A DNA stretch of 7,184 bases from a virus (taxonomy: Duplodnaviria > Heunggongvirae > Uroviricota > Caudoviricetes): IMG/VR virus record IMGVR_UViG_2617270940_000007, positions 1-7,184 of that record; one strand, given 5' to 3'. Made by a program: the position numbers and the translations under genes. The notes below the pieces were generated by a model. The model was not told the origin of the DNA, searched no databases, and saw only the letters and a list, made by a program, of their open reading frames with translations. Below, one piece after another: positions 1-7,184 of the stretch; position 1 is the first letter of the stretch; each line of letters opens with the position of its first letter.

Positions 1-65
1 AACCAATATCACTTAAATAAGTGATAGTCTTAATACTAGTTTTTAGACTAGTCATTGGAGAGCAG

Positions 66-431
66 ATGATTGATGTCTTAGGACCGGAGAAACGCAGACG
101 GCGTACTACACAGGAAAAGATCGCTATTGTTCAGCAGAGTTTTGAACCGGGAATGACGGTCTCCCTTGTTGCCCGGCAACACGGTGTGGCAGCCAGCCAG
201 TTATTTCTCTGGCGCAAGCAATACCAGGAGGGAAGTCTTACTGCTGTGGCCGCAGGAGAGCAGGTCGTTCCTGCCTCTGAACTTGCTGCTGCCATGAAGC
301 AGATTAAAGAACTCCAGCGCCTGCTCGGCAAAAAAACGATGGAAAATGAACTCCTTAAAGAAGCCGTTGAATACGGGCGTGCAAAAAAGTGGATAGCGCA
401 CGCGCCCTTATTGCCCGGGGATGGGGAGTAA
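66..431 (+). CDS. insC: IS2 transposase OrfA (InsC), 121 aa, helix-turn-helix DNA-binding subunit
   Basis: ORF-track protein [40 protein letters not shown]... matches IS2 InsC as I recall it; chosen start is the ATG at 66 rather than the ORF-track upstream extension at 21. Confidence 0.9.
383..389 (+). other. Programmed -1 ribosomal frameshift motif A_AAA_AAG of IS2 (orfA to orfB)
   Basis: Heptamer aaaaaag at 383-389 in the insC frame (A-K-K-W) exactly where the insD frame opens; A6G slippery sites are the established mechanism in IS3-family elements. Confidence 0.75.
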
Positions 432-1294
432 GCTTAGTCAGCCGTTGTCTCCGGGTGTCGCGTGCGCAGTTGCACGTAATTCTCAGACGAACCGATGACT
501 GGAAAGATGGTCGCCGCAGCCGTCACTCAGATGATACGGATGTGCTTCTCCGTATACACCATGTTATCGGAGAGCTGCCCACGTATGGTTATCGTCGGGT
601 ATGGGCGCTGCTTCGCAGACAGGCCGAACTTGATGGTATGCCTGCGATCAATGCCAAACGTGTTTACCGGATCATGCGCCAGAATGCGCTGTTGCTTGAG
701 CGAAAACCCGCTGTACCGCCATCGAAACGGGCACATACTGGCAAAGTGGCCGTGAAAGAAAGCAATCAACGATGGTGCTCTGACGGGTTCGAGTTCCGCT
801 GTGATAACGGAGAAAAACTGCGAGTCACGTTCGCGCTGGACTGCTGTGACCGTGAGGCACTGCACTGGGCAGTCACTACGGGCGGCTTCGACAGTGAAAC
901 AGTACAGGACGTAATGCTGGGAGCGGTGGAACGCCGCTTCGGCAACGAGCTTCCGGCGTCTCCAGTAGAGTGGCTGACGGATAATGGTTCATGCTACCGG
1001 GCTAATGAAACACGGCAGTTTGCCCGGATGTTGGGGCTTGAACCGAAGAACACGGCGGTGCGGAGTCCGGAGAGTAACGGCATAGCAGAGAGCTTCGTGA
1101 AAACGATAAAGCGTGACTACATCAGTATCATGCCTAAACCAGACGGGTTAACGGCAGCAAAGAACCTTGCAGAGGCGTTCGAGCATTATAACGAATGGCA
1201 TCCGCATAGTGCACTGGGTTATCGCTCGCCACGGGAATATCTGCGGCAGCAGGCCAGTAATGGGTTAAGTGATAACAGGTGTCTGGAAATATAG
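389..1294 (+). CDS. insD: IS2 transposase OrfB (InsD), DDE catalytic domain; expressed as InsCD fusion by -1 frameshift
   Basis: 301-aa ORF in the -1 frame relative to insC, overlapping its 3' end; GTG start at 389 lies inside the slippery heptamer; stop TAG at 1292-1294 inside the right inverted repeat. Confidence 0.9.
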
Positions 1295-1305
1295 GGGCAA
1301 ATCCA
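1265..1305. repeat. IS2 right terminal inverted repeat (IRR)
   Basis: Terminal ~41 bp ending ...tggaaatataggggcaaatcca; the matching left repeat lies outside the window, so pairing cannot be verified here. Confidence 0.6.
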
Positions 1306-1679
1306 CCTACTGCCATTACCCACACTTTCATCATTTCACGTAAACGAAGAGAAAAGCGCACCTGCCATTACTCCATACACGGAGAAGAACAATCACCAAA
1401 ACGACGGGAACAACCCAGACGAAAACACAGAGAAGAACCACCTCAAGAAGAACGAAACCACATACGCCGGTAGAGAGTACAAACCACCCATTTCACCCAC
1501 AGGAATAGTCGCCGTATTGAGCGTTATCAGAGAGAAGGTTTATGCCCACATAAGAGAGAAAATTCGAGGGAGGTATAAGTGGGAAGGGGAAGAGGGGTAT
1601 CGCTACTTTTTCCGTATAAATTCAAGCCATAGTTTTCGTCCCCCGTAACGTCCCTATCCACCCCTTCGGTCAGCCTTCG

Positions 1680-1830
1680 GGCCATCCAGGGAAAAGGCCA
1701 TGTCCCTTTTCAGGAACGGGAGCGTCGCCGCAGGGAAAAGGCTGGAGGTTTTCAGGGAAACGGTGGGAATCCCGCTGTACGAACCGGGAAAAGGCTGGCT
1801 GCCGGTCGGGAAACGGGTACATCCCGGTAC
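1680..1830. repeat. GC-rich array of ~6 degenerate direct repeats (core GGGAAA(A/C)GG, ~22-bp period); iteron-like or protein-binding array
   Basis: Units cagggaaaaggc (~1687), caggaacggg (~1711), cagggaaaaggc (~1731), cagggaaacgg (~1753), ccgggaaaaggc (~1784), cgggaaacggg (~1807); no credible ORF across it. Confidence 0.5.
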
Positions 1831-2134
1831 AGAGTGAGGGACGACTGCGGGAGCGGTGCGGGAAATCTTCGGGAGTGCGCCTTACTCTTCACTCGCCTGA
1901 AAATCGCGGGGGAGTGTCATTCCCTCTCGTGCAGCTACTGGACTCCAGTCTGCCAGACCATCATCGGGTCTCAAGCGATTTCAGTAGGTTTTCGGGGAGA
2001 AGAAAATTCTGCCCACCAGCCCCGCGGCGCGCGTAGAGCAGAATATCGTAAATACTGGCTCCCGTGTCGTTCCCGGATATTCACTGCCCAGCCTGGCTTT
2101 CCCGACATAAAATCCTTTTTCGCCTTTGTCTTAT

Positions 2135-2170
2135 TGCGATAATAACACCAATAAGTAAACAACATATTTA
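2135..2170 (+). promoter_or_regulatory. Promoter module A: extended -10 (TGcGATAAT) followed by degenerate AAACAA-N-ATTTA operator-like element
   Basis: ttgcgataataacaccaataagtaaacaacatattta aligns with modules D (4651-4686) and E (5135-5170); lies ~30 bp upstream of RBS gagga and ATG 2202. Confidence 0.4.
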
Positions 2171-2201
2171 GACGTTATAGAAACGAAGTGAGGATGAAGA
2201 G

Positions 2202-2418
2202 ATGATTAAGATGCCTGTGACGGTTGAGGTGTGGGGCGTGGATTCCCTGGCTGAGTGTCTGGATGCAGTGGGGCCGGAGTTGTACCGCAAGTTGTGGTCG
2301 TTCGTCCCGCAGAAGGGGAATCGCCCAAAGGGAAGGATATCTGGCATCTGCTGAGTGAAGATGAAAAGCGGGAGCTGGTGGACGCGGTACACAGCGAGTT
2401 CCCGGAGGACGAAGATTA
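2202..2418 (+). pseudogene. Small ORF (~72 aa if repaired) split by an apparent frameshift near 2331-2336; hypothetical protein
   Basis: RBS gagga 8 nt before ATG 2202; frame 0 gives MIKMPVTVEVWGVDSLAECLDAVGPELYRKLWSFVPQKGNRPKG then stops at 2352-2354; the -1 frame continues KDIWHLLSEDEKRELVDAVHSEFPEDED to TAA ~2416-2418. Both halves look protein-like. Below the ORF-track length cutoff. Confidence 0.3.
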
Positions 2419-2510
2419 AGAGTGAGGTCACCAGCACGGTGGCTTTTGTCGCTATTAACCTCCGGGGCAGCGCAGCACCGTAACGATATACTCTGTGGCC
2501 GTTTTCTTAC

Positions 2511-2548
2511 TGGTATTGTTTACGCAATTCAGAAAACAACATGTTTAA
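2511..2548 (+). promoter_or_regulatory. Promoter module B: extended -10 (TGgTATTGT) plus AAACA-aca-TGTTT palindrome in the 5' UTR
   Basis: ctggtattgtttacgcaattcagaaaacaacatgtttaagga; near-identical in layout to module C (2992-3037); immediately precedes RBS aagga and ATG 2559. Confidence 0.5.
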
Positions 2549-2558
2549 GGATTGCTTT

Positions 2559-2888
2559 ATGTTTGCAAATATCGACATCAACCAAATCAAGAAAATGACT
2601 CAAAAAGAGTTTGACCAGTTTTATGAGTTAGAAGGTTGGTCTTCCACGCTGATCAATTCGCGCTGGGTGCTTGAGCTGATGACTCGTGATGATGCTCCTG
2701 CTTTGATTATTTGCGACATGGGTGAAGATGCTGACTTTATGGATATGAGCGAATTTTGTGTGGACACATACAACCGCAGCCAGAAGTACTACTTCACATG
2801 CGATAGCGAGAATGACGTGATTTCTAAGCTCTATCTTCACCTTGTCCAGCATTGGGACGTGCAGGAATTCCTTGAGTTATTCGCGTAA
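2559..2888 (+). CDS. Hypothetical small acidic protein, 109 aa (cassette gene 1)
   Basis: ORF-track 2541..2888; start moved to ATG 2559 because 2541 lies inside the operator palindrome and 2559 has an aagga RBS at suitable spacing; followed by a hairpin at 2898-2920. No recognisable family. Confidence 0.6.
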   Translation: MFANIDINQIKKMTQKEFDQFYELEGWSSTLINSRWVLELMTRDDAPALIICDMGEDADFMDMSEFCVDTYNRSQKYYFTCDSENDVISKLYLHLVQHWDVQEFLELFA

Positions 2889-2897
2889 GCCCAACCA

Positions 2898-2925
2898 AAG
2901 CCAGCACCGCCTGCTGGCTTAACTT
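2898..2925 (+). terminator. Hairpin (aagccagc-accgcct-gctggctt) with weak U-tract; putative terminator of gene 1
   Basis: 8-bp inverted repeat 10 nt after the stop codon; downstream tract ttaacttctc is only moderately T-rich. Confidence 0.4.
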
Positions 2926-2991
2926 CTCTGTAGCCGTAGGGAAGAACCACCTTTAGATAATTCATGTGCCTGAGCAATATGCTTTGTAGCC

Positions 2992-3037
2992 GTTTTTACA
3001 CTGGTATTATTTACGCCATTGAGAAAACAATTTGTTT
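2992..3037 (+). promoter_or_regulatory. Promoter module C: extended -10 (TGgTATTAT) plus AAACAA-t-TTGTTT palindrome in the 5' UTR
   Basis: gccgtttttacactggtattatttacgccattgagaaaacaatttgtttacgg; homologous to module B over ~50 bp; precedes RBS ggag and ATG 3049. Confidence 0.5.
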
Positions 3038-3048
3038 ACGGAGTAGTG

Positions 3049-3360
3049 ATGAATACTTCATTGGTGCTGGGTCTTGCTGAAGGCCAGGAGAGAAAAGAAA
3101 AACCAACCTTAATGGGGCATCTCACATTGCTGGATATCGTAGCGAATGGGACTTCTATCCGTCTGTTTCGTGAAAAAGCCATTACCTTCGACGCGGGCAA
3201 TTTTACGCGCTATGTGATGGTAGTTCGTCGCCGGCGTGGAAGAGGGTGGATGTCGGTCCAGAAAATGTGGCCAGAGGACCAGCTTGAACTGGCGCTGATG
3301 GAAGCTAACCGTGTCGCCCAACAAGAGATCCAACGAGCGTCTGTTCAGGCGGTAGCTTAA
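3049..3360 (+). CDS. Hypothetical protein, 103 aa (cassette gene 2)
   Basis: ORF-track 3019..3360 begins at a TTG inside the operator; ATG 3049 preceded by ggag is the likelier start; Rho-independent terminator follows. No recognisable family. Confidence 0.55.
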   Translation: MNTSLVLGLAEGQERKEKPTLMGHLTLLDIVANGTSIRLFREKAITFDAGNFTRYVMVVRRRRGRGWMSVQKMWPEDQLELALMEANRVAQQEIQRASVQAVA

Positions 3361-3394
3361 ACATGTGCAAGCAGTAGTTAGTCGAATGTACGAC

Positions 3395-3424
3395 AGCCCC
3401 GCCAATCCTTCGGGGCTTTTTTGT
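3395..3424 (+). terminator. Rho-independent terminator (agccccg - loop - cggggct + TTTTTT)
   Basis: GC-rich 7-bp stem with ccttcgg-type loop followed directly by a six-T run, 35 nt after the gene 2 stop. Confidence 0.7.
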
Positions 3425-3449
3425 ATTGTAAGTACTTACTTATGATAAT
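3421..3449 (+). promoter_or_regulatory. Sigma70-like promoter (TTGTAT - 17 bp - GATAAT) with a perfect 12-bp palindrome GTAAGTACTTAC in the spacer
   Basis: -35 TTGTAT at 3421-3426, -10 GATAAT at 3444-3449, spacer 17 bp; palindrome at 3428-3439 overlaps the spacer (operator-like); AT-rich leader then strong RBS aggag 6 nt before ATG 3482. Confidence 0.5.
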
Positions 3450-3481
3450 AAAATTAAAAATTAAACAATAAGGAGAGTGAA

Positions 3482-3877
3482 ATGACCGTTAAACGCGAAA
3501 ATCTGACCCTGGATATGTATTATGCATCAGAGACGGAAAATGGAGACAAAGTTGCAAAAATTACAATTGTGCTACGCGATAATGCCTCCGGCGAAGAAGT
3601 TCACACCAGTACCTTAACTCGCACCGGCGAGGCGACAAAGGGGAAATATTCGGTGCGTTACCAAAGCATCAGTAATGCTTCTGACCCTTTACTGATAAAA
3701 CTGGAAACTCATTTCCGTGGCGCGGATCAGACGTTGTTTGAAAATTTGATGAAAAAGGTCGATACGGTTTATACATCGAGTTTAAATACCAATAGTACCT
3801 GGATGGGACAACACGGTCTGCGAATAATCTCCGGCGAAAAGATCGACACCATTGTCCCTGAAAGCGTATTCGCTTAA
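3482..3877 (+). CDS. Hypothetical protein, 131 aa (cassette gene 3)
   Basis: Strong RBS aggag at 3471-3475, 6 nt before the ATG; own promoter and own terminator; no recognisable family. Confidence 0.65.
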   Translation: MTVKRENLTLDMYYASETENGDKVAKITIVLRDNASGEEVHTSTLTRTGEATKGKYSVRYQSISNASDPLLIKLETHFRGADQTLFENLMKKVDTVYTSSLNTNSTWMGQHGLRIISGEKIDTIVPESVFA

Positions 3878-3886
3878 TCCTCTTTG

Positions 3887-3916
3887 AATGGCGCGTAAAC
3901 CGCGCCATTTTCTTAT
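3887..3916 (+). terminator. Rho-independent terminator (aatggcgcg-taaac-cgcgccatt + T-rich tract)
   Basis: Perfect 9-bp inverted repeat 10 nt after the gene 3 stop, followed by ttttcttatg. Confidence 0.65.
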
Positions 3917-3921
3917 GTCCG

Positions 3922-3936
3922 ATAACAATTTGTTTT
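3922..3936 (+). promoter_or_regulatory. Operator-like palindrome AACAA-t-TTGTT (copy F of the conserved motif) upstream of gene 4
   Basis: gataacaatttgttttctg matches the core palindrome of modules B-E; the -10 context differs (GATAAC abuts the palindrome), so the promoter assignment is less certain. Confidence 0.35.
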
Positions 3937-3994
3937 CTGCCTTATCTGATTTGTGAAAATGATTTCACTGAAGCAACTTAATAAGGAAACCATC

Positions 3995-4369
3995 ATGGGA
4001 CTTGATATATATATCGAGACGCAGCCTAAAAACGATCTGAATAACGAGGCATCCAGAAAGCAGGTTGCTTACTTCCGTAAGTTCAATGCGCTCGTTGGGT
4101 GGATGGAGCGCAACGTAGGTGAAGTCGAAAATTGTGAGCTTTTAGAATTAACGATGAATGACATTTGTTTTCTGAAGGCTCATTTGATGCACATAAACGA
4201 AAGTAATTGCGAAGAGTACTTGCCTACCCAGGAAGGTTCTTTCTTCGGCAGTCAGGAGTACGATGAAGGTTACTGGCATGATGTGGGGGAGTTGAAAGAG
4301 ATTGTGGAAGATCTGATTAAGAACCACGACTTTCACAATAATAGACTGACCTTCTGCGCCTGGTGGTAA
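3995..4369 (+). CDS. Hypothetical acidic protein, 124 aa (cassette gene 4)
   Basis: ORF-track 3953..4369 starts at GTG with no RBS; ATG 3995 has aagga 7 nt upstream; stop TAA overlaps the start of the next small ORF (taaatATG). Confidence 0.55.
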   Translation: MGLDIYIETQPKNDLNNEASRKQVAYFRKFNALVGWMERNVGEVENCELLELTMNDICFLKAHLMHINESNCEEYLPTQEGSFFGSQEYDEGYWHDVGELKEIVEDLIKNHDFHNNRLTFCAWW

Positions 4370-4371
4370 AT

Positions 4372-4515
4372 ATGGGCGATTTCAAGAAACGCCTGAAGGA
4401 GAGAGCCGAGATGGTCAGAAAGCGAAACGCCTCTTCTGTCATAAGATACGCAAGGCAGTTTAGTCGCAACAACAAATCAGTTGAGGAAAAGATCCTTAGC
4501 GTAATCGGGCGATAA
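4372..4515 (+). CDS. Small basic ORF, 47 aa (or 34 aa from internal ATG 4411 with strong RBS aaggagag); possible coupled partner of gene 4
   Basis: MGDFKKRLKERAEMVRKRNASSVIRYARQFSRNNKSVEEKILSVIGR; start overlaps the upstream stop; internal ATG at 4411 has a strong SD at 7-nt spacing; Lys/Arg-rich; followed by hairpin 4521-4544. Below ORF-track cutoff. Confidence 0.3.
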   Translation: MGDFKKRLKERAEMVRKRNASSVIRYARQFSRNNKSVEEKILSVIGR

Positions 4516-4520
4516 TTATT

Positions 4521-4544
4521 AAGGCCACCAGCATTGGTGGTCTT
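4521..4544. repeat. Hairpin repeat copy 1 (aaggccacca-gcat-tggtggtctt) carrying a Chi octamer on the minus strand
   Basis: 10-bp arms with one G:T position, 4-nt loop; flanked by ttaaatgac; near-identical element at 4992-5015 with inverted loop; ccaccagc (complement of Chi GCTGGTGG) at 4525-4532. Confidence 0.6.
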
Positions 4545-4650
4545 AAATGACTTTTAATAACCGAAGGTTAGTTTGAAACCTGGCTATCAACTTCCAGAAC
4601 CTTTCTTGTGTATTCAGCCTGTATTAACTTCTTTTATGTCTTATCTACAC

Positions 4651-4686
4651 TGCGATAATTACACCAACAAGAAAACAATATGTTTA
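4651..4686 (+). promoter_or_regulatory. Promoter module D: extended -10 (TGcGATAAT) plus AAACA-ata-TGTTT palindrome in the 5' UTR
   Basis: tgcgataattacaccaacaagaaaacaatatgtttacgc; homologous to modules A and E; followed by RBS gagga (4693-4697) and ATG 4705. Confidence 0.5.
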
Positions 4687-4704
4687 CGCAGTGAGGATAT
4701 GCTC

Positions 4705-4986
4705 ATGACTGATTTCACCATTACCCCTAAAGCACAAAATGTATTCCTTGAATCATGGCTGGACTTGCCGGAAACAGAACAGCAAGAAATGGATCATGTG
4801 GAATATGACGAGCAGGTAAGCACGCGATTCTTCCACTTTGAGGGCTGCGTTTACGACATTGCCAACTTCATGCGAGATGACCGCTTCCCTGAATGGCACG
4901 CAAGCTATCCACTAAACGCCTTCGCCATGCTGATGATCCGTGTGGATGATTCAGGGGATACCATCGACATCGGTCTGCTCCACTAA
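4705..4986 (+). CDS. Hypothetical small acidic protein, 93 aa (cassette gene 5)
   Basis: ORF-track 4573..4986 would run through the promoter/operator; ATG 4705 lies 7 nt after gagga (ATG 4699 is too close to the SD). Protein MTDFTITPKAQNVFLESWLDLPETEQQEMDHVEYDEQ... is Asp/Glu-rich. No recognisable family. Confidence 0.6.
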   Translation: MTDFTITPKAQNVFLESWLDLPETEQQEMDHVEYDEQVSTRFFHFEGCVYDIANFMRDDRFPEWHASYPLNAFAMLMIRVDDSGDTIDIGLLH

Positions 4987-4991
4987 AGAGT

Positions 4992-5015
4992 AAGGCCACC
5001 AATGCTGGTGGCCTT
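4992..5015. repeat. Hairpin repeat copy 2 (aaggccacca-atgc-tggtggcctt) carrying a Chi octamer on the plus strand
   Basis: Perfect 10-bp arms; loop atgc is the reverse complement of the copy-1 loop gcat; GCTGGTGG at 5004-5011; followed by ttaaatgac as in copy 1. Confidence 0.6.
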
Positions 5016-5116
5016 AAATGACCATCCTGTTTTCTGCAGGCTAAAAACACCAACCTCTTACCTCCAGGCAACCGACAAACCCACCTGTTCCCGTCCGGCT
5101 ACCGCAACTTTCCACT

Positions 5117-5170
5117 TTGACGCCTTATTCGTACAACGATAATTAACACAAACAAGAAAACAATTTGTTA
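5117..5170 (+). promoter_or_regulatory. Promoter module E: TTGACG -35-like, cGATAAT -10, then AAACAA-t-TTGTTA palindrome in the 5' UTR
   Basis: ttgacgccttattcgtacaacgataattaacacaaacaagaaaacaatttgttatttacg; homologous to modules A and D; RBS aagga (5179-5183) 7 nt before ATG 5191. Confidence 0.5.
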
Positions 5171-5190
5171 TTTACGATAAGGAATTAATC

Positions 5191-5673
5191 ATGAATTTTA
5201 TCGCTACTGTAAACGCACCCGCACATGGCAATATCGCTGTAACGTTCTCTGACATTGAAAAACGAGTACTTGGTGCATGGCGCGACAATGAGACGGTAGA
5301 ACTGTCAGCACAAGAAAAATGCATTATTGCACGCGACATCATTGGCAATCGTCGTTACTCGCGGGTATTTGAGAAAGCATATGTGGTAAATTCTGGATTC
5401 GGAACGTTCGTCTTTCCGGTGCGCTCCGGGCGATTCTGCCAGTCCAAGCTGATTGAGTTCGCTACGCAGATTTCTGTCTGGATTAAAACTCAATCGTCGT
5501 TCAAATTTTCCGACGATGAAGCAGTATCGCAGGGGATGCGGATCGCCAACAATGCAATAAAATGCAAAAACATTACGTATGCCGCTGGCGTTGACACATG
5601 GAAACTGTTTTGCGCTAACTTTATGCTGAATGTATACGCAAGCAACCGCATCCACATCCTTGATGGCGTGTAA
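5191..5673 (+). CDS. Hypothetical protein, 160 aa (cassette gene 6)
   Basis: Good RBS, own promoter module, and a hairpin terminator immediately downstream; no recognisable family. Confidence 0.65.
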   Translation: MNFIATVNAPAHGNIAVTFSDIEKRVLGAWRDNETVELSAQEKCIIARDIIGNRRYSRVFEKAYVVNSGFGTFVFPVRSGRFCQSKLIEFATQISVWIKTQSSFKFSDDEAVSQGMRIANNAIKCKNITYAAGVDTWKLFCANFMLNVYASNRIHILDGV

Positions 5674-5676
5674 CTG

Positions 5677-5706
5677 AGAAGAGGGCCAGAAACGGCCCTT
5701 TCTCTA
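5677..5706 (+). terminator. Rho-independent terminator (agggcc-agaaac-ggccct + tttctct)
   Basis: GC-rich stem 4 nt after the stop codon, followed by a T-rich tract. Confidence 0.6.
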
Positions 5707-5716
5707 TAGCCACCAG

Positions 5717-5900
5717 CTGCCGCAGGGAAATTTTCAGAAACGGCGAGGAACGCATTCATGAGCCGAAGGGAAACGACCATGAAATTTTCTGGAAACGGCG
5801 GGGGGCGCCTTTATGTAGAAAACTGAGCGGGAGAAACCCGGAATCGCGCCAGAAATTGCGTAGCGGCGCTGGGGCAGCGCTGGTGGGGTTTCAGCCCCTG
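5717..5900. repeat. Second GC-rich repeat block (GGGAAA / GAAACGG units), homologous to the 1680-1830 array
   Basis: gccgcagggaaa...ttttcagaaacggcg matches gccgcagggaaaaggctggaggttttcagggaaacggtg in array 1, as if with a ~10-bp deletion; shared gggccatccag motif (1677-1687 and ~5892-5902); Chi octamers at both edges (5710-5717 minus strand, 5879-5886 plus strand). Confidence 0.45.
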
Positions 5901-6088
5901 GGCCATCCAGATAGCTTTCGCTATGTGATTATGTGAATCCGTGGGTAAATCACTGTAAGCGCGTACACGTTGCCCAACGTGGCAATCATATGCGAGCGGA
6001 TACAAAACAACACAAAGAGCCGATCCGCGCCGACAAATAAATGCGGATCACATAGCAAGACTAAAAGCCAATGATTAACCATACTCTA

Positions 6089-6109
6089 TAGCGCAATATA
6101 ACGCGTTTT
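6089..6109. repeat. Hairpin (taacgcg-ttttaag-cgcgtta)
   Basis: Perfect 7-bp inverted repeat in an AT-rich intergenic region; member of a local family of GCGC-stem hairpins. Confidence 0.4.
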
Positions 6110-6216
6110 AAGCGCGTTAATGTGTTAAGTAATGGGTATGTACTGACAAGGATATAAAAGCGCGTCTATGGCGTTATTTTGGTGCTTATTTTTATGTTGT
6201 TGGAGCGAGTTAAAGA

Positions 6217-6246
6217 CAATAAAAAACGCGCCAATGATGGCGCGTT
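6217..6246 (-). terminator. Hairpin (aacgcgcc-aatgat-ggcgcgtt) followed by a T-run on the minus strand; second of two tandem minus-strand terminators
   Basis: Perfect 8-bp stem; on the minus strand the stem is followed directly by TTTTTT (plus-strand aaaaaa at 6221-6226). Confidence 0.5.
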
Positions 6247-6265
6247 ATGGTGGGAGTATTGGAAA

Positions 6266-6290
6266 CGAAAAAAGCGCCCATAGTGGGCGC
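6266..6290 (-). terminator. Rho-independent terminator of the 76-aa minus-strand gene (gcgccca-tag-tgggcgc + TTTTTT)
   Basis: Perfect 7-bp stem 6274-6290, followed on the minus strand by six T; lies 7 nt past the stop codon (6297-6299) of the 6297..6527 gene; the same 17-bp palindrome recurs at 6547-6563. Confidence 0.7.
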
Positions 6291-6296
6291 TCGATT

Positions 6297-6527
6297 TTAT
6301 TTGTGTAAACTAATTTTGAATCCCATTTCTACAAACGCTTTTAACATTAAAAATATATCAGCGTCATTCACGTCTGCTTTTTTTCGCTCCTGGTCGTTCA
6401 ATAAGTCAATTTTGCGCGTTGTTTCATTTATAAACTCGACTGCGCGCCCAGCGATCCCAGCGATCCCAGCGATGCGATTAACATAATATTCATTATGGAC
6501 GTTAACGCCAGCGATAAGAACAAACAT
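6297..6527 (-). CDS. Hypothetical small protein, 76 aa, containing an in-frame (IAG)x3 tandem repeat
   Basis: Minus-strand ORF with strong SD aaggag 7 nt before the ATG; bracketed by two identical 17-bp hairpins (6274-6290 and 6547-6563); terminator downstream. No recognisable family. Confidence 0.55.
   Translation of the reverse strand: MFVLIAGVNVHNEYYVNRIAGIAGIAGRAVEFINETTRKIDLLNDQERKKADVNDADIFLMLKAFVEMGFKISLHK
6447..6473. repeat. Perfect 9-bp tandem repeat (cccagcgat)x3 inside the 76-aa gene
   Basis: Three head-to-tail copies; on the coding (minus) strand atcgctggg x3 encodes Ile-Ala-Gly x3, so copy-number change would preserve frame. Confidence 0.8.
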
Positions 6528-6546
6528 GATTAAGCTCCTTAAAACT

Positions 6547-6563
6547 AGCGCCCATAGTGGGCG
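6547..6563. repeat. Second copy of the 17-bp palindrome gcgcccatagtgggcgc, between the two minus-strand genes
   Basis: Identical to 6274-6290; sits between the stop of the upstream minus-strand fragment (6578) and the SD/ATG (6527) of the 76-aa gene. Confidence 0.6.
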
Positions 6564-6577
6564 CTATATCCATCTAA

Positions 6578-6837
6578 TTACGCTTTGAAAGCATCAGCCA
6601 GATAGTTATAAAAATCATTTTTAACGAAGCGATATTGCTGTGATCCGTTTTTCGCTGCACCCATTCCTTTGATTTTTTCGACCAGTCCCAGACGTTCGCA
6701 AAGATTGATAAGCTGGTTGGCTTGAGTGTATCCTGCGTCTAATTTTATTTCGTTGGCTTTTTTCGCTTCATTCATTAAATCGAAAACAGCGCCATTGGTG
6801 AACGTGTCGATCTCGTCGTTAATCATATCGATTAATG
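6578..6837 (-). pseudogene. 3' fragment of a gene truncated at its 5' end by IS1 insertion; hypothetical protein, tentatively phage antirepressor-like C-terminal region
   Basis: Minus-strand frame stays open from the ORF-track Met (6826) up to the IS1 boundary (6837) with no stop, so the ORF runs into the IS; the antirepressor resemblance is an impression from memory only. Confidence 0.45.
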
Positions 6838-6892
6838 GGTGATGCTGCCAACTTACTGATTTAGTGTATGATGGTGTTTTTGAGGTGCTCCA

Positions 6893-7168
6893 GTGGCTTC
6901 TGTTTCTATCAGCTGTCCCTCCTGTTCAGCTACTGACGGGGTGGTGCGTAACGGCAAAAGCACTGCCGGACATCAGCGCTATCTCTGCTCTCATTGCCGT
7001 AAAACATGGCAACTACAGTTCACTTACACCGCCTCTCAGCCCGGTACGCACCAGAAAATCATTGATATGGCCATGAATGGCGTTGGATGCCGGGCAACTG
7101 CCCGCATTATGGGCGTTGGCCTCAACACGATTTTACGTCACTTAAAAAACTCAGGCCGCAGTCGGTAA
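6893..7168 (+). CDS. insA: IS1 InsA (transposition repressor / N-terminal part of the InsAB' transposase), 91 aa
   Basis: [91 protein letters not shown]; GTG start at 6893; zinc-finger-like CxxC...CxxC motif. Confidence 0.92.
7144..7150 (+). other. IS1 A6C -1 frameshift motif (insA to insB', gives InsAB' transposase)
   Basis: aaaaaac near the 3' end of insA, the established IS1 frameshift position; the insB' frame continues beyond the window. Confidence 0.7.
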
Positions 7169-7184
7169 CCTCGCGCATACAACC

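Follow-up and report, generated by a model that had tools for sequence, protein, structure and literature searches.

An array of self-contained small-gene cassettes in an SSU5/pHCM2-type phage-plasmid that probably share one operator with an element-wide regulon

In the phage-plasmid P1, C1 operators are dispersed before ban, dam, lpa and other lytic genes, each operator being an asymmetric 17-mer bound by C1. Small genes can also be arranged as PeSL (promoter-early stem-loop) cassettes, as in T4-type phages, whose hyperplastic regions they populate (Arbiol et al. 2010, PMC2839356; Comeau et al. 2014, PMC4122927). A third point of reference is FljA, whose target is an operator in the 5' leader of fliC (PMC4122451). 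The locus analysed here lies in a 7,184-nt stretch of viral DNA (the window) and comprises eight small genes, namely g1, g2, g3, g4, g5, g5b, g6 and g7, at window positions 2202-5673. The main new result is a control module common to this array and to replication and DNA-methylase genes.

Positions 1306-6837 of the window are a piece of an SSU5/pHCM2-type phage-plasmid. Indeed, this DNA is 97-99.9% identical to E. coli plasmids of about 105-190 kb bearing terminase, portal, capsid and tail genes, and 72-85% identical to phages Cyrano and SSU5 and to Klebsiella relatives; the array segment is a syntenic block kept across these SSU5/pHCM2-like phage-plasmids. The array has a variable restriction-modification/methylase block on one side and ParB, terminase and capsid genes on the other, and is the hyperplastic accessory region of the phage-plasmid. 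The mobile, horizontally acquired context put forward in the original prediction was borne out, the array lying in a non-structural accessory region of a phage whose structural genes (terminase, portal, capsid, tail) were found beyond the window in relatives. A plasmid leading region, also suggested there, was not: across its 110 kb, the relative pTB212 has no annotated oriT, relaxase or T4SS. The array is preceded by the 3' part (1306..2106, + strand) of an ORF-poor conserved region of about 1.6 kb with GGGAAA(A/C)GG repeats, which is 65-72% identical over about 750 nt between lineages and unannotated in RefSeq relatives, and in which neither codon periodicity nor covariation support for RNA structure was found.

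The coordinates and common orientation of the ORFs were confirmed, all being on the + strand. In brief, the genes are: (i) g1 (2202..2419), a pseudogene here through a 1-nt deletion and frameshift, whose intact form encodes an acidic protein of 72 aa (phrog_6757), so that the 50-aa ORF at 2202-2354, although correctly located, is a remnant of g1 and not a separate gene; (ii) g2 (2559..2888; 109 aa, acidic, phrog_7645), a variable cassette; (iii) g3 (3049..3360; 103 aa, basic, phrog_5125), present in every complete array; (iv) g4 (3482..3877; 131 aa, phrog_2473); (v) g5 (3995..4369; 124 aa, acidic), whose family is large (1931 cluster representatives at E <= 0.001) and uncharacterised, with the motif MGLD..YWRK.N..W..GFFFG..Y..W; (vi) g5b (4372..4515; 47 aa, basic, pI 11.3); (vii) g6 (4705..4986; 93 aa, acidic, phrog_1845), a variable cassette found only in SSU5-like elements; and (viii) g7 (5191..5673; 160 aa, basic, phrog_1641), present in every complete array. 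The acidity noted earlier was verified for g2, g5 and g6 (net charge -13, -13 and -14, respectively; pI 4.2-4.6; 19-20% D+E); the basic proteins are g3, g5b and g7. The gene g5b starts 2 nt past the g5 stop codon, has no promoter of its own and appears to be translationally coupled to g5; it is missing from the RefSeq annotation, is annotated in phage Cyrano (homologue CYRAN_109) and is absent from some lineages that have g5.

Conservation, dN/dS and PHROG matches indicate that the small ORFs are real genes. Purifying selection acts on every gene (dN/dS 0.10-0.26 in relatives), and all seven annotated genes match PHROG families of unknown function, g5b matching none. The genes are therefore not all ORFans, and the family of g5 is a large one. 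Nearly all complete arrays have g1, g3, g4 and g7 in synteny, g1 being undetected in several, and among relatives gene content is polymorphic by presence/absence and alleles are mosaic. Between lineages g3 shares 55-75% identity, and g4 alleles fall into three classes (99%, 57-64% and 39% identity); both genes diverge fast relative to the neighbouring m216, a 216-aa gene (phrog_1513) whose 5' part lies at 6578..6837 on the - strand.

Each ORF had been credited with its own promoter, Shine-Dalgarno (SD) site and hairpin. An SD site was found for eight of eight genes and a hairpin for seven of seven transcription units, and the promoter claim fails for g5b; individually transcribed cassettes were upheld at the level of predicted elements, and the promoter, operator and terminator roles given below are likewise predictions. 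Copies of the control module in the window were found as repeat families (D1, D2 and D5 for the g1 copy), by sequence and by alignment. Indeed, g1, g2, g3, g6 and g7 each carry a module of about 65 nt, in which a putative extended -10 sigma-70 promoter is followed by the palindrome AAACAAnTTGTTT; a sixth gene, g5, has a rearranged copy with the palindrome over the -35 region. The copies, all listed on the + strand, are those of g1 (2107..2170; extended -10 TGCGATAAT, degenerate palindrome at 2157-2169), g2 (2486..2551; extended -10 TGGTATTGT, palindrome at 2534-2546), g3 (2977..3042; extended -10 TGGTATTAT, palindrome AAACAATTTGTTT at 3025-3037), g5 (3921..3962, inverted orientation; palindrome at 3923-3935 overlapping the -35, extended -10 TGTGAAAAT at 3952-3960), g6 (4623..4686; extended -10 TGCGATAAT, palindrome at 4673-4685) and g7 (5107..5170; TTGACG -35, CGATAAT -10, palindrome at 5158-5170). 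A generic sigma-70 scan of the window called the g4 promoter only, the modules being missed because their -35 elements are weak.

The 13-bp palindrome lies at about +8 to +20 from the inferred start site or, inverted, over the -35, and the inverted copies argue for action on DNA. Over the whole of plasmid pTB212 there are 11 exact palindromes where 0.03 would be expected, and 17 if one mismatch is allowed (0.4 expected); all 17 are intergenic and, except for two with no annotated gene downstream, lie 11-75 nt upstream of start codons. At 7 of 13 aligned sites, including g2, g3, g6 and g7, the spacing from the -10 hexamer to the centre of the palindrome downstream of it is fixed at 20-21 nt. 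In a phylogenetic footprint, promoter and palindrome do not vary between the E. coli, Salmonella and Klebsiella relatives, whereas the flanks are scrambled; when 6-n-6 palindromes are ranked by frequency, AAACAAnTTGTTT comes first in four of the five lineage groups of the SSU5 supergroup and second in the remaining one. In pTB212 the palindrome precedes DnaB, CobT/AAA, two DNA methyltransferase, Rha and other genes, as well as the first gene of the terminase cluster. The array would therefore sit within one element-wide regulon, and the terminase-cluster copy makes the label of early genes alone too simple.

The promoter of g4 (3426..3454, + strand; TTGTAA-17-TAAAAT) is conserved in all relatives examined and contains a different palindrome, GTAAGTACTTAC, at 3428-3439. 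This second palindrome occurs between genes five times in pTB212 (0 expected); besides g4, the portal gene and a gene cluster beside the tail genes have it, as do a few further sites. With its own promoter and GTAAGTACTTAC, g4 may be wired apart from the other cassettes.

All seven transcription units end in a hairpin of -14 to -19 kcal/mol, and for five of these hairpins the stability clearly exceeds that of shuffled sequence (z -2.4 to -5.7). The seven include, on the + strand, a predicted intrinsic terminator of g3 (3395..3423; GCCCCG...CGGGGC then T6), a predicted terminator of g4 (3886..3910; z -5.7), and the hairpin of g7 (5676..5704; -17.7 kcal/mol, z -3.9). A T-tract follows only the g3 and g4 hairpins and, weakly, that of g1; the g5b, g6 and g7 hairpins have none. 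One hairpin sequence, TTAAGGCCACCAGCATTGGTGGTCTTAA, is repeated at 4513..4551 (repeat families D6 and I1) and 4984..5022 (both + strand), forming the left and right boundaries of the g6 cassette. The indels of g2, g5+g5b and g6 have breakpoints that coincide exactly with duplicated modules or hairpins, the g2 indel running from the g2 module to the g3 module and the g5+g5b indel from the g5 module to the g6 module. Repeated modules and terminator hairpins could thus serve as homologous-recombination points for cassette gain, loss and swap.

The best explanation, to which we give a probability of about 0.7, is a phage-plasmid array of self-contained cassettes under one shared operator that belongs to an element-wide regulon. 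Each cassette would consist of a sigma-70 extended -10 promoter, an operator, an SD site, a small ORF and a stem-loop. A dimeric regulator encoded by the element would sit on the palindrome and keep the genes off during plasmid maintenance; upon release at infection or induction, they would be expressed along with replication and DNA-modification functions, giving small cytoplasmic proteins early in the lytic or establishment phase. In RNA-seq of the LF82(Cyrano) lysogen in LB, array homologues are near the detection floor, CYRAN_109 is among the genes expressed 6-fold above background, and ciprofloxacin induces Cyrano 39-fold (PMC9928086).

The FljA-family protein encoded downstream in intact relatives is a candidate for this regulator, as a repressor at the palindrome, on grounds of proximity and weak sequence resemblance. 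Its gene lies about 1.2 kb downstream of the array, just past the IS1 insertion that ends the window, and encodes a full-length PF03614 FljA-family member (E = 1.5e-95). The Salmonella fliC leader has CAAGTTGT adjoining its SD site, matching the palindrome at 8 of 12 positions, with a chance probability of about 0.1 by our own estimate. The palindrome is unchanged in lineages whose FljA-like protein is only 56-58% identical, and a second repressor-like gene (CYRAN_45 homologue) is present elsewhere in the element. FljA itself is documented as an mRNA-binding translational repressor, a mode that suits the copies in 5' leaders and not those upstream of a -10.

Host takeover or anti-defence is the likeliest class of role for the products. 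The more specific reading, that they form an anti-defence/anti-restriction set in which the acidic, DNA-mimic-like g2, g5 and g6 neutralise host immunity on entry, is plausible, at odds somewhat worse than even; it is compatible with the shared-operator reading and adds a specific function. It is favoured by that acidity, by the control element that the array has in common with two DNA methyltransferase genes, by the adjoining variable block of restriction-modification systems, by presence/absence polymorphism together with the fast divergence of g3 and g4 relative to m216, by silence in the lysogen, and by the DUF1380 and DUF5983 genes that carry the array's palindrome in SSU5. Genes of these two families are typical of enterobacterial plasmid leading regions. 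Against it, the homology and structure searches by which the anti-defence idea could be checked gave no anti-defence homologue and, on the other side, a weak fold match of g5 to DMP12. Indeed, Pfam, NCBIfam and PADLOC yielded nothing that explains the array proteins (PADLOC gave one weak match, g6 to Dsr1, E 0.03), no convincing PDB sequence match was obtained, and no array protein matched a known anti-defence protein or solved structure in sequence. The AF2 model of g5 (pLDDT 96.7) is weakly similar in fold to YfbM and to the DNA mimic DMP12, with no significant match in a Foldseek search of the PDB, and the conserved aromatic/basic motifs of g5 (YWRK, GFFFG) are unlike a simple charge mimic. 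Moreover, the acidity is moderate at 19-20% D+E, half of the array proteins are basic, dN/dS of about 0.1 gives no arms-race sign at whole-gene level, and a published DefenseFinder screen reported Rad alone in SSU5-group elements.

Lysogenic-conversion or plasmid-maintenance cargo ('morons' such as fitness, toxin-antitoxin, exclusion or defence genes), which the resident plasmid-prophage would express, is an unlikely reading. A promoter and terminator for each cassette are classic moron architecture, the expression of CYRAN_109 in the lysogen fits, and acidic g5 with its small, basic partner g5b looks superficially like a two-component module; however, g5 occurs without g5b in some lineages, RNA-seq of LB lysogens puts the remaining array genes at its floor or close to it, the operator is common to the array and the DnaB, CobT and terminase-cluster genes, and the single weak PADLOC hit is no convincing defence match.

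The window also contains a partial IS2 (1..1305, + strand; ORFs 21-431 and 389-1294, read as InsC/InsD proteins), with its end sequence visible, inserted in the conserved non-coding region, homology to IS-free relatives beginning at 1306, and a partial IS1 (InsA; 6838..7184, + strand), which truncates m216. These flanks exist where they had been reported, and the meaning attached to them does not stand: the bracket is incidental, relatives being IS-free, and both elements appear to be secondary insertions specific to this copy. An IS2/IS1 composite transposon or integron-like cassette array is very improbable: the two elements do physically bracket the block, but they are unlike and interrupt a conserved non-coding region and m216, dozens of relatives carry the same block without IS and continuous with phage-plasmid sequence on both sides, the IS2 junction recurs in no record of the plasmid and E. 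coli collections, and the intergenic repeats are promoters and terminators, not attC, with no adjacent integron integrase.

The shared-operator array can be set against known systems. Like the anti-defence islands of conjugative-plasmid leading regions, it has same-strand small genes, DUF1380-type genes nearby and, as proposed, expression on entry; unlike them, the element lacks oriT, relaxase and T4SS (pTB212 annotation) as well as ardA, klcA, psiB and ssb, and, instead of single-strand promoters, the array has double-stranded sigma-70 ones with an operator. From the DNA mimics Ocr, ArdA and DMP12 the array proteins differ by absence of sequence homology and lower charge density, g5 having aromatic/basic motifs instead of acidic rows and a non-significant Foldseek match. 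The FljA operator lies near the fliC SD in the 5' leader, as do most palindromes here, and the Salmonella leader and the palindrome have a CAAnTTGT core in common; FljA, however, is a single-target mRNA-binding repressor of the flagellar switch, whereas a multi-target regulator of phage genes is proposed here, and palindromes upstream of the -10 imply DNA binding. With PeSL cassettes the array shares small, mostly function-unknown, non-universal ORFs flanked by a repeated sigma-70-like promoter and stem-loop, and insertions, deletions and replacements between relatives that break inside the repeats; promoter and terminator activity and mini-circles were demonstrated there and the elements here are known from sequence, the hosts are a virulent T4-type myovirus and a temperate siphovirus phage-plasmid, respectively, and only here does the module contain a palindromic operator and occur outside the variable region, before replication, methylase and terminase-cluster genes. 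Finally, the P1 C1 operator differs from the 13-bp palindrome in being asymmetric and unrelated in sequence, and repression here is putative, but both are short operators at many promoters of a phage-plasmid, including those of replicative-helicase and methylase genes, with unit-by-unit control instead of one early operon.

The array of eight small plus-strand genes at 2202-5673 is a hyperplastic region of an SSU5-type phage-plasmid, resembles the promoter-early stem-loop (PeSL) cassettes of T4-type phages, and is tied into a predicted element-wide palindrome regulon. Phage-plasmids of the SSU5/pHCM2 type are frequent in clinical isolates of E. coli, Shigella, Salmonella Typhi and Klebsiella; their gene regulation is, to our knowledge, essentially undescribed. 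Positions 1306-6837, enclosed by a partial IS2 (1-1305) and a partial IS1 (the last 347 bases), share 97-99.9% nucleotide identity with E. coli plasmids of ~105-190 kb, and 72-85% with the phages Cyrano, CMS-2020a, PhiR41_1 and SSU5 and with several Klebsiella phage-plasmids. The backbone is syntenic at the nucleotide level with SSU5-group genomes, in which phage structural genes occur together with genes for plasmid replication/partition; its relative pTB212, assembled whole (110,417 bp), has RepA, ParB, terminase, portal, capsid and tail genes. The mobile-element context proposed in the original prediction holds.

In the relatives, phage-plasmid sequence runs on unbroken at both ends of the block, with a variable stretch upstream that may contain a type I restriction-modification (R-M) system, orphan methyltransferases, a Rha regulator and an S24 peptidase, and with genes for a FljA-like regulator, a DEAD-box helicase and two ParB proteins downstream, followed by the terminase, portal and capsid genes. 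A swap site upstream of the array is occupied by a complete type I R-M system in pTB212 (L001 2320-8298), by a lone restriction endonuclease in plasmid pYUXYEH3934-1 (L002 3748-4707) and by MinD-like and MetRS genes in Cyrano (L004 771-4062). In the window, the IS2 insertion splits a conserved non-coding region and IS1 truncates a 216-aa gene. No record with the IS2 junction was found in the plasmid or E. coli collections searched; therefore the IS bracket, by which the array had been framed, is a secondary trait private to this copy. The framing as a plasmid leading region does not hold either: the annotation of pTB212 contains no relaxase, no T4SS and no ard, klc, psi or ssb genes.

The array comprises g1 (2202-2419), which a single-base deletion breaks here, g2 (2559-2888; acidic, net -13), g3 (3049-3360; basic), g4 (3482-3877), g5 (3995-4369; acidic, net -13), g5b (4372-4515; basic), g6 (4705-4986; acidic, net -14) and g7 (5191-5673; basic). 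Because their dN/dS values are 0.10-0.26 (8-35 alleles per gene), these are real protein-coding genes; a 50-aa ORF also predicted is a remnant of the frameshifted g1. The acidic character suggested for part of the set stands for g2, g5 and g6, and g3, g5b and g7 are basic. Shine-Dalgarno motifs precede all eight genes, and a hairpin of -14 to -19 kcal/mol closes each of the seven transcription units (well beyond shuffled controls in five of them). Together with the repeated promoter modules described below, the hairpin ending each unit points to individually transcribed cassettes, as had been proposed; g5b, which starts 2 bases past the g5 stop codon, is the exception, having no promoter of its own. 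This unannotated gene encodes a very basic protein of 47 aa, is translationally coupled to the acidic g5 and is under purifying selection, and some Klebsiella-type lineages have g5 without it.

Repeat analysis revealed a direct repeat of ~65 nt before g1, g2, g3, g6 and g7, with a related, rearranged form before g5. This module combines a -35 region that is weak (TTTGTAGCC or TTGACGCC) with an extended -10 (TGnGATAAT or TGGTATTAT), followed by the conserved stretch ACACCAAnAAG and the palindrome AAACAAnTTGTTT, from which 11-30 nt lead to the Shine-Dalgarno site and start codon. A generic promoter scan missed the modules, with a hit count below that of shuffled sequence. In alignments of the regions upstream of g3, g6 and g7 from E. 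coli, Salmonella and Klebsiella relatives, promoter and palindrome are invariant and the flanks unalignable.

The palindrome reaches well beyond the array. In pTB212, it occurs in 11 exact copies (0.03 expected) and in 17 copies at no more than one mismatch (0.4 expected), all 17 being intergenic; 15 of them share the transcriptional strand of the array and stand 11-75 nt ahead of a start codon, and the other two have no annotated gene on their downstream side. Targets outside the array include CobT-like and AAA genes, a DnaB-like helicase, two DNA methyltransferase genes, Rha, a DUF5983 gene and the first gene of the terminase cluster. When all 6-n-6 palindromes were tallied without bias over 37 loci from five lineage groups, AAACAAnTTGTTT was the most frequent in four groups and the runner-up in the other. 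As in a P1 C1-type regulon, one putative operator is thus repeated at many separate promoters genome-wide; the three palindrome variants looked for (n = A, G or T) had no match in the searchable literature. At 7 of 13 aligned sites, including those of g2, g3, g6 and g7, the -10 hexamer is 20-21 nt ahead of the palindrome centre, which places the palindrome at about +8 to +20. An RNA element as the sole mechanism was rejected, since three sites are inverted and upstream of the -10, and is also disfavoured by a stem of only about 5 A-U-rich pairs. At these three sites (g5 and two more), the inverted element overlaps the -35 of an otherwise homologous promoter, an arrangement that argues, at the level of sequence, for recognition of the palindrome on DNA.

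The promoter of g4 is of its own kind: conserved and separate from the module, it reads TTGTAA-17-TAAAAT and contains a different palindrome, GTAAGTACTTAC (3428-3439). This second palindrome, which corresponds to GTAAGTAC(T/A)TAC with the extended form TAGGTAAGTACTTACCTA, occupies five intergenic sites in pTB212 (34032, 38781, 63392, 75950 and 95074 in L005-L007; 0 expected), with a one-mismatch copy near 15685. It precedes g4, the portal gene, a three-gene cluster beside the tail genes (hypothetical, membrane protein, hypothetical) and one further gene, in addition to one orphan site, and the one-mismatch copy lies ~30 nt upstream of a putative repressor gene similar to CYRAN_45 of Cyrano. 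These sites look like a separate regulon, and with g4 under a promoter with this other palindrome, the array would be divided between two control circuits.

The DNA around the array has repeats of its own. Positions 1306-2106 belong to an ORF-poor, GC-rich region of ~1.6 kb, which is split here by IS2 and extends ~800 bp further upstream in relatives (L001 14314-15896). This region retains 65-72% identity across the E. coli, Salmonella and Klebsiella lineages, lacks codon periodicity and contains many GGGAAA(A/C)GG and TTTTCAGRAACGG repeats; relatives have an 'orphan' copy of the promoter-palindrome module facing into this region. Its identity may be that of a non-coding RNA, of an array for protein binding or of an origin. 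For a large structured RNA in 1306-2106, RNAalifold found no covariation (term +0.15), and an Rfam scan of the whole window gave sub-threshold chance matches only. Downstream of g7, a second ORF-poor stretch (5674-6296) has the motifs GCCGCAGGGAAA, TTTTCAGAAACGG and TCAGCCnnnGGGCCATCCAG in common with 1306-2106, so that similar non-coding DNA with repeats lies to either side of the array. On the minus strand, a GC-rich hairpin, AGCGCCCATAGTGGGCGCT, recurs (6225-6292 and 6542-6565), and its copies are predicted tandem terminators after a 76-aa minus-strand gene. The palindrome CGCCCAnnnTGGGCG ranks first, second or third in all SSU5-like lineage groups examined.

With regard to the proteins, none of the ten searched had a match in Pfam or NCBIfam, and the PADLOC defence-protein models gave no match below E 0.03. 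The products are not all ORFans: all array proteins except g5b fall in PHROG families (of unknown function), and g5 is widespread. According to homologue searches, the g4, g6 and g7 families are limited to SSU5-like elements of Enterobacteriaceae, including Yersinia. A PDB sequence search with g2, g5, g6 and g7 retrieved no credible relative, and the acidic proteins g2, g5 and g6 had no Pfam, NCBIfam or PDB match to the known DNA mimics Ocr, ArdA and DMP12. A match of g2 to multicystatin (E 3.7e-5) was treated as spurious, no stretch of it passing alone. The label 'ABC transporter' carried by many homologues of g6 (93 aa) in GenBank and UniRef is backed by no family search; the structure model of g6 is poor (pLDDT 53), a consequence of its shallow family alignment. 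The g5 family counts 1931 cluster representatives (clusters at 50% identity) at E <= 0.001, and g5 is therefore not an ORFan. Its near-invariant features are MGLD, YxRKxN, P-x3-GFFFG, two Y residues and a C-terminal W, with D4, Y26, R28, K29, N31 and W124 among the invariant residues, and its AlphaFold model reaches a pLDDT of 96.7. A profile of 112 g5 relatives gave only noise against the PDB, the Foldseek matches of the model, whose weak resemblance is to YfbM and DMP12, fell short of significance, comparison with a viral library retrieved uncharacterised proteins only, mostly from jumbo phages, and the relatives are unnamed in every source searched. A DMP12/YfbM-like fold of g5 is a lead, short of demonstrating DNA mimicry. 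That at least some array members act in anti-defence, as originally suggested, is possible, although we would put the odds somewhat against it.

Expression data are available for the Cyrano lysogen of E. coli LF82 grown in LB, in which RNA-seq values of CYRAN_105-111 are log2 2.3-5.1 against a floor of 2.32, with the exception of the g5b homologue CYRAN_109 (log2 5.6-6.1), which is among the few expressed genes of the region; ciprofloxacin raises Cyrano virion production 39-fold (PMC9928086). The low array RNA speaks against constitutively expressed lysogenic cargo and fits repression in the plasmid state, and we infer an early timing of the array genes. The array also provides a screening shortlist for anti-defence or host takeover, made up of conserved small proteins under purifying selection, silent in the single lysogen for which expression was assayed. 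Among them is an uncharacterised family that is very widespread and has a confident structural model.

In intact relatives, a FljA-family gene follows the array after ~1.2 kb and reads from the opposite strand; its place is beyond the point of the IS1 and so outside the window. This gene (pTB212 71301-71828 = L001 21246-21773; SSU5_121; CYRAN_114) matches PF03614 over the full profile length (E = 1.5e-95), and all SSU5-like loci that were retrieved by means of it have it conserved. As a member of the family of the 'repressor of phase-1 flagellin', its product may silence host flagellin, regulate the phage or do both. FljA is reported to block translation by binding to an operator within the leader of the fliC mRNA (PMC4122451, PMC2652032). 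Published primers gave the sequence of the Salmonella fliC leader (...AACATCAAGTTGTAATTGATAAGGAAAAGATC-ATG), which has a CAAnTTGT core and a Shine-Dalgarno-adjacent position in common with the palindrome, the match covering 8 of 12 positions with a chance probability of ~0.1 by our own estimate. The fliC leader of E. coli K-12 contains no clear copy of the palindrome. The motif, identical across lineages, shows no variation alongside the FljA-like protein, and another repressor-like gene lies near the integrase of the element. We estimate the chance that the FljA-family protein is the palindrome binder at about one in three.

A broader reading, to which we give a probability of roughly 0.2, is that an undescribed regulon of the SSU5 supergroup is under the control of a phage FljA-family protein, that FljA is a domesticated form of it and that the cassettes include new anti-defence or host-takeover genes. 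This protein would bind AAACAAnTTGTTT both on DNA and in 5' leaders beside the Shine-Dalgarno site, and would switch ~17 units (replication, methylases, terminase, cassettes) between plasmid and lytic states; Salmonella FljA, whose fliC operator has the CAAnTTGT core, would descend from such a phage regulator, and the cassette products would include the DMP12/YfbM-like family of g5. A single short putative operator marks the regulon of the element, and thereby maps the genes that may be controlled together, with a concrete candidate for their regulator.

Across 40 related loci, gene order is constant and content variable: g3 and g7 are present in every complete array, g4 is absent from one (L022), and in several g1 was not detected. 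Presence varies for g2, for g6 and for g5, the last mostly together with g5b, with other cassettes filling the gaps. Alleles recombine independently, those of g4 falling into three classes (99%, 57-64% and 39% identity) beside different neighbours. PhiR41_1, which has no g6, retains precisely one of the two hairpin copies that stand on either side of g6 in the window (4513-4551 and 4984-5022, the sole two copies in the genome); SSU5, which has no g2, has one promoter module in place of the two in the window (2486-2551 and 2977-3042); and g5 with g5b likewise lies between modules (3921-3962 and 4623-4686). Each of g2, g5+g5b and g6 is bounded by duplicated modules or hairpins, of which cassette-less genomes retain a single copy. 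PeSLs are defined by small ORFs of variable occurrence, each with a repeated promoter and stem-loop at its flanks, and by insertions, deletions and replacements that break inside the repeats, and the promoter/stem-loop cassettes of T4-type hyperplastic regions behave likewise (PMC2839356, PMC4122927). However, PeSLs belong to T4-type myoviruses, in which strong early promoter and terminator activity was measured, whereas the present elements are predicted and belong to an SSU5-like siphovirus phage-plasmid. The array works like PeSLs yet falls outside the PeSL family, and the principle of variable small genes exchanged at repeated regulatory sequences is widened from T4-type phages to a temperate phage-plasmid.
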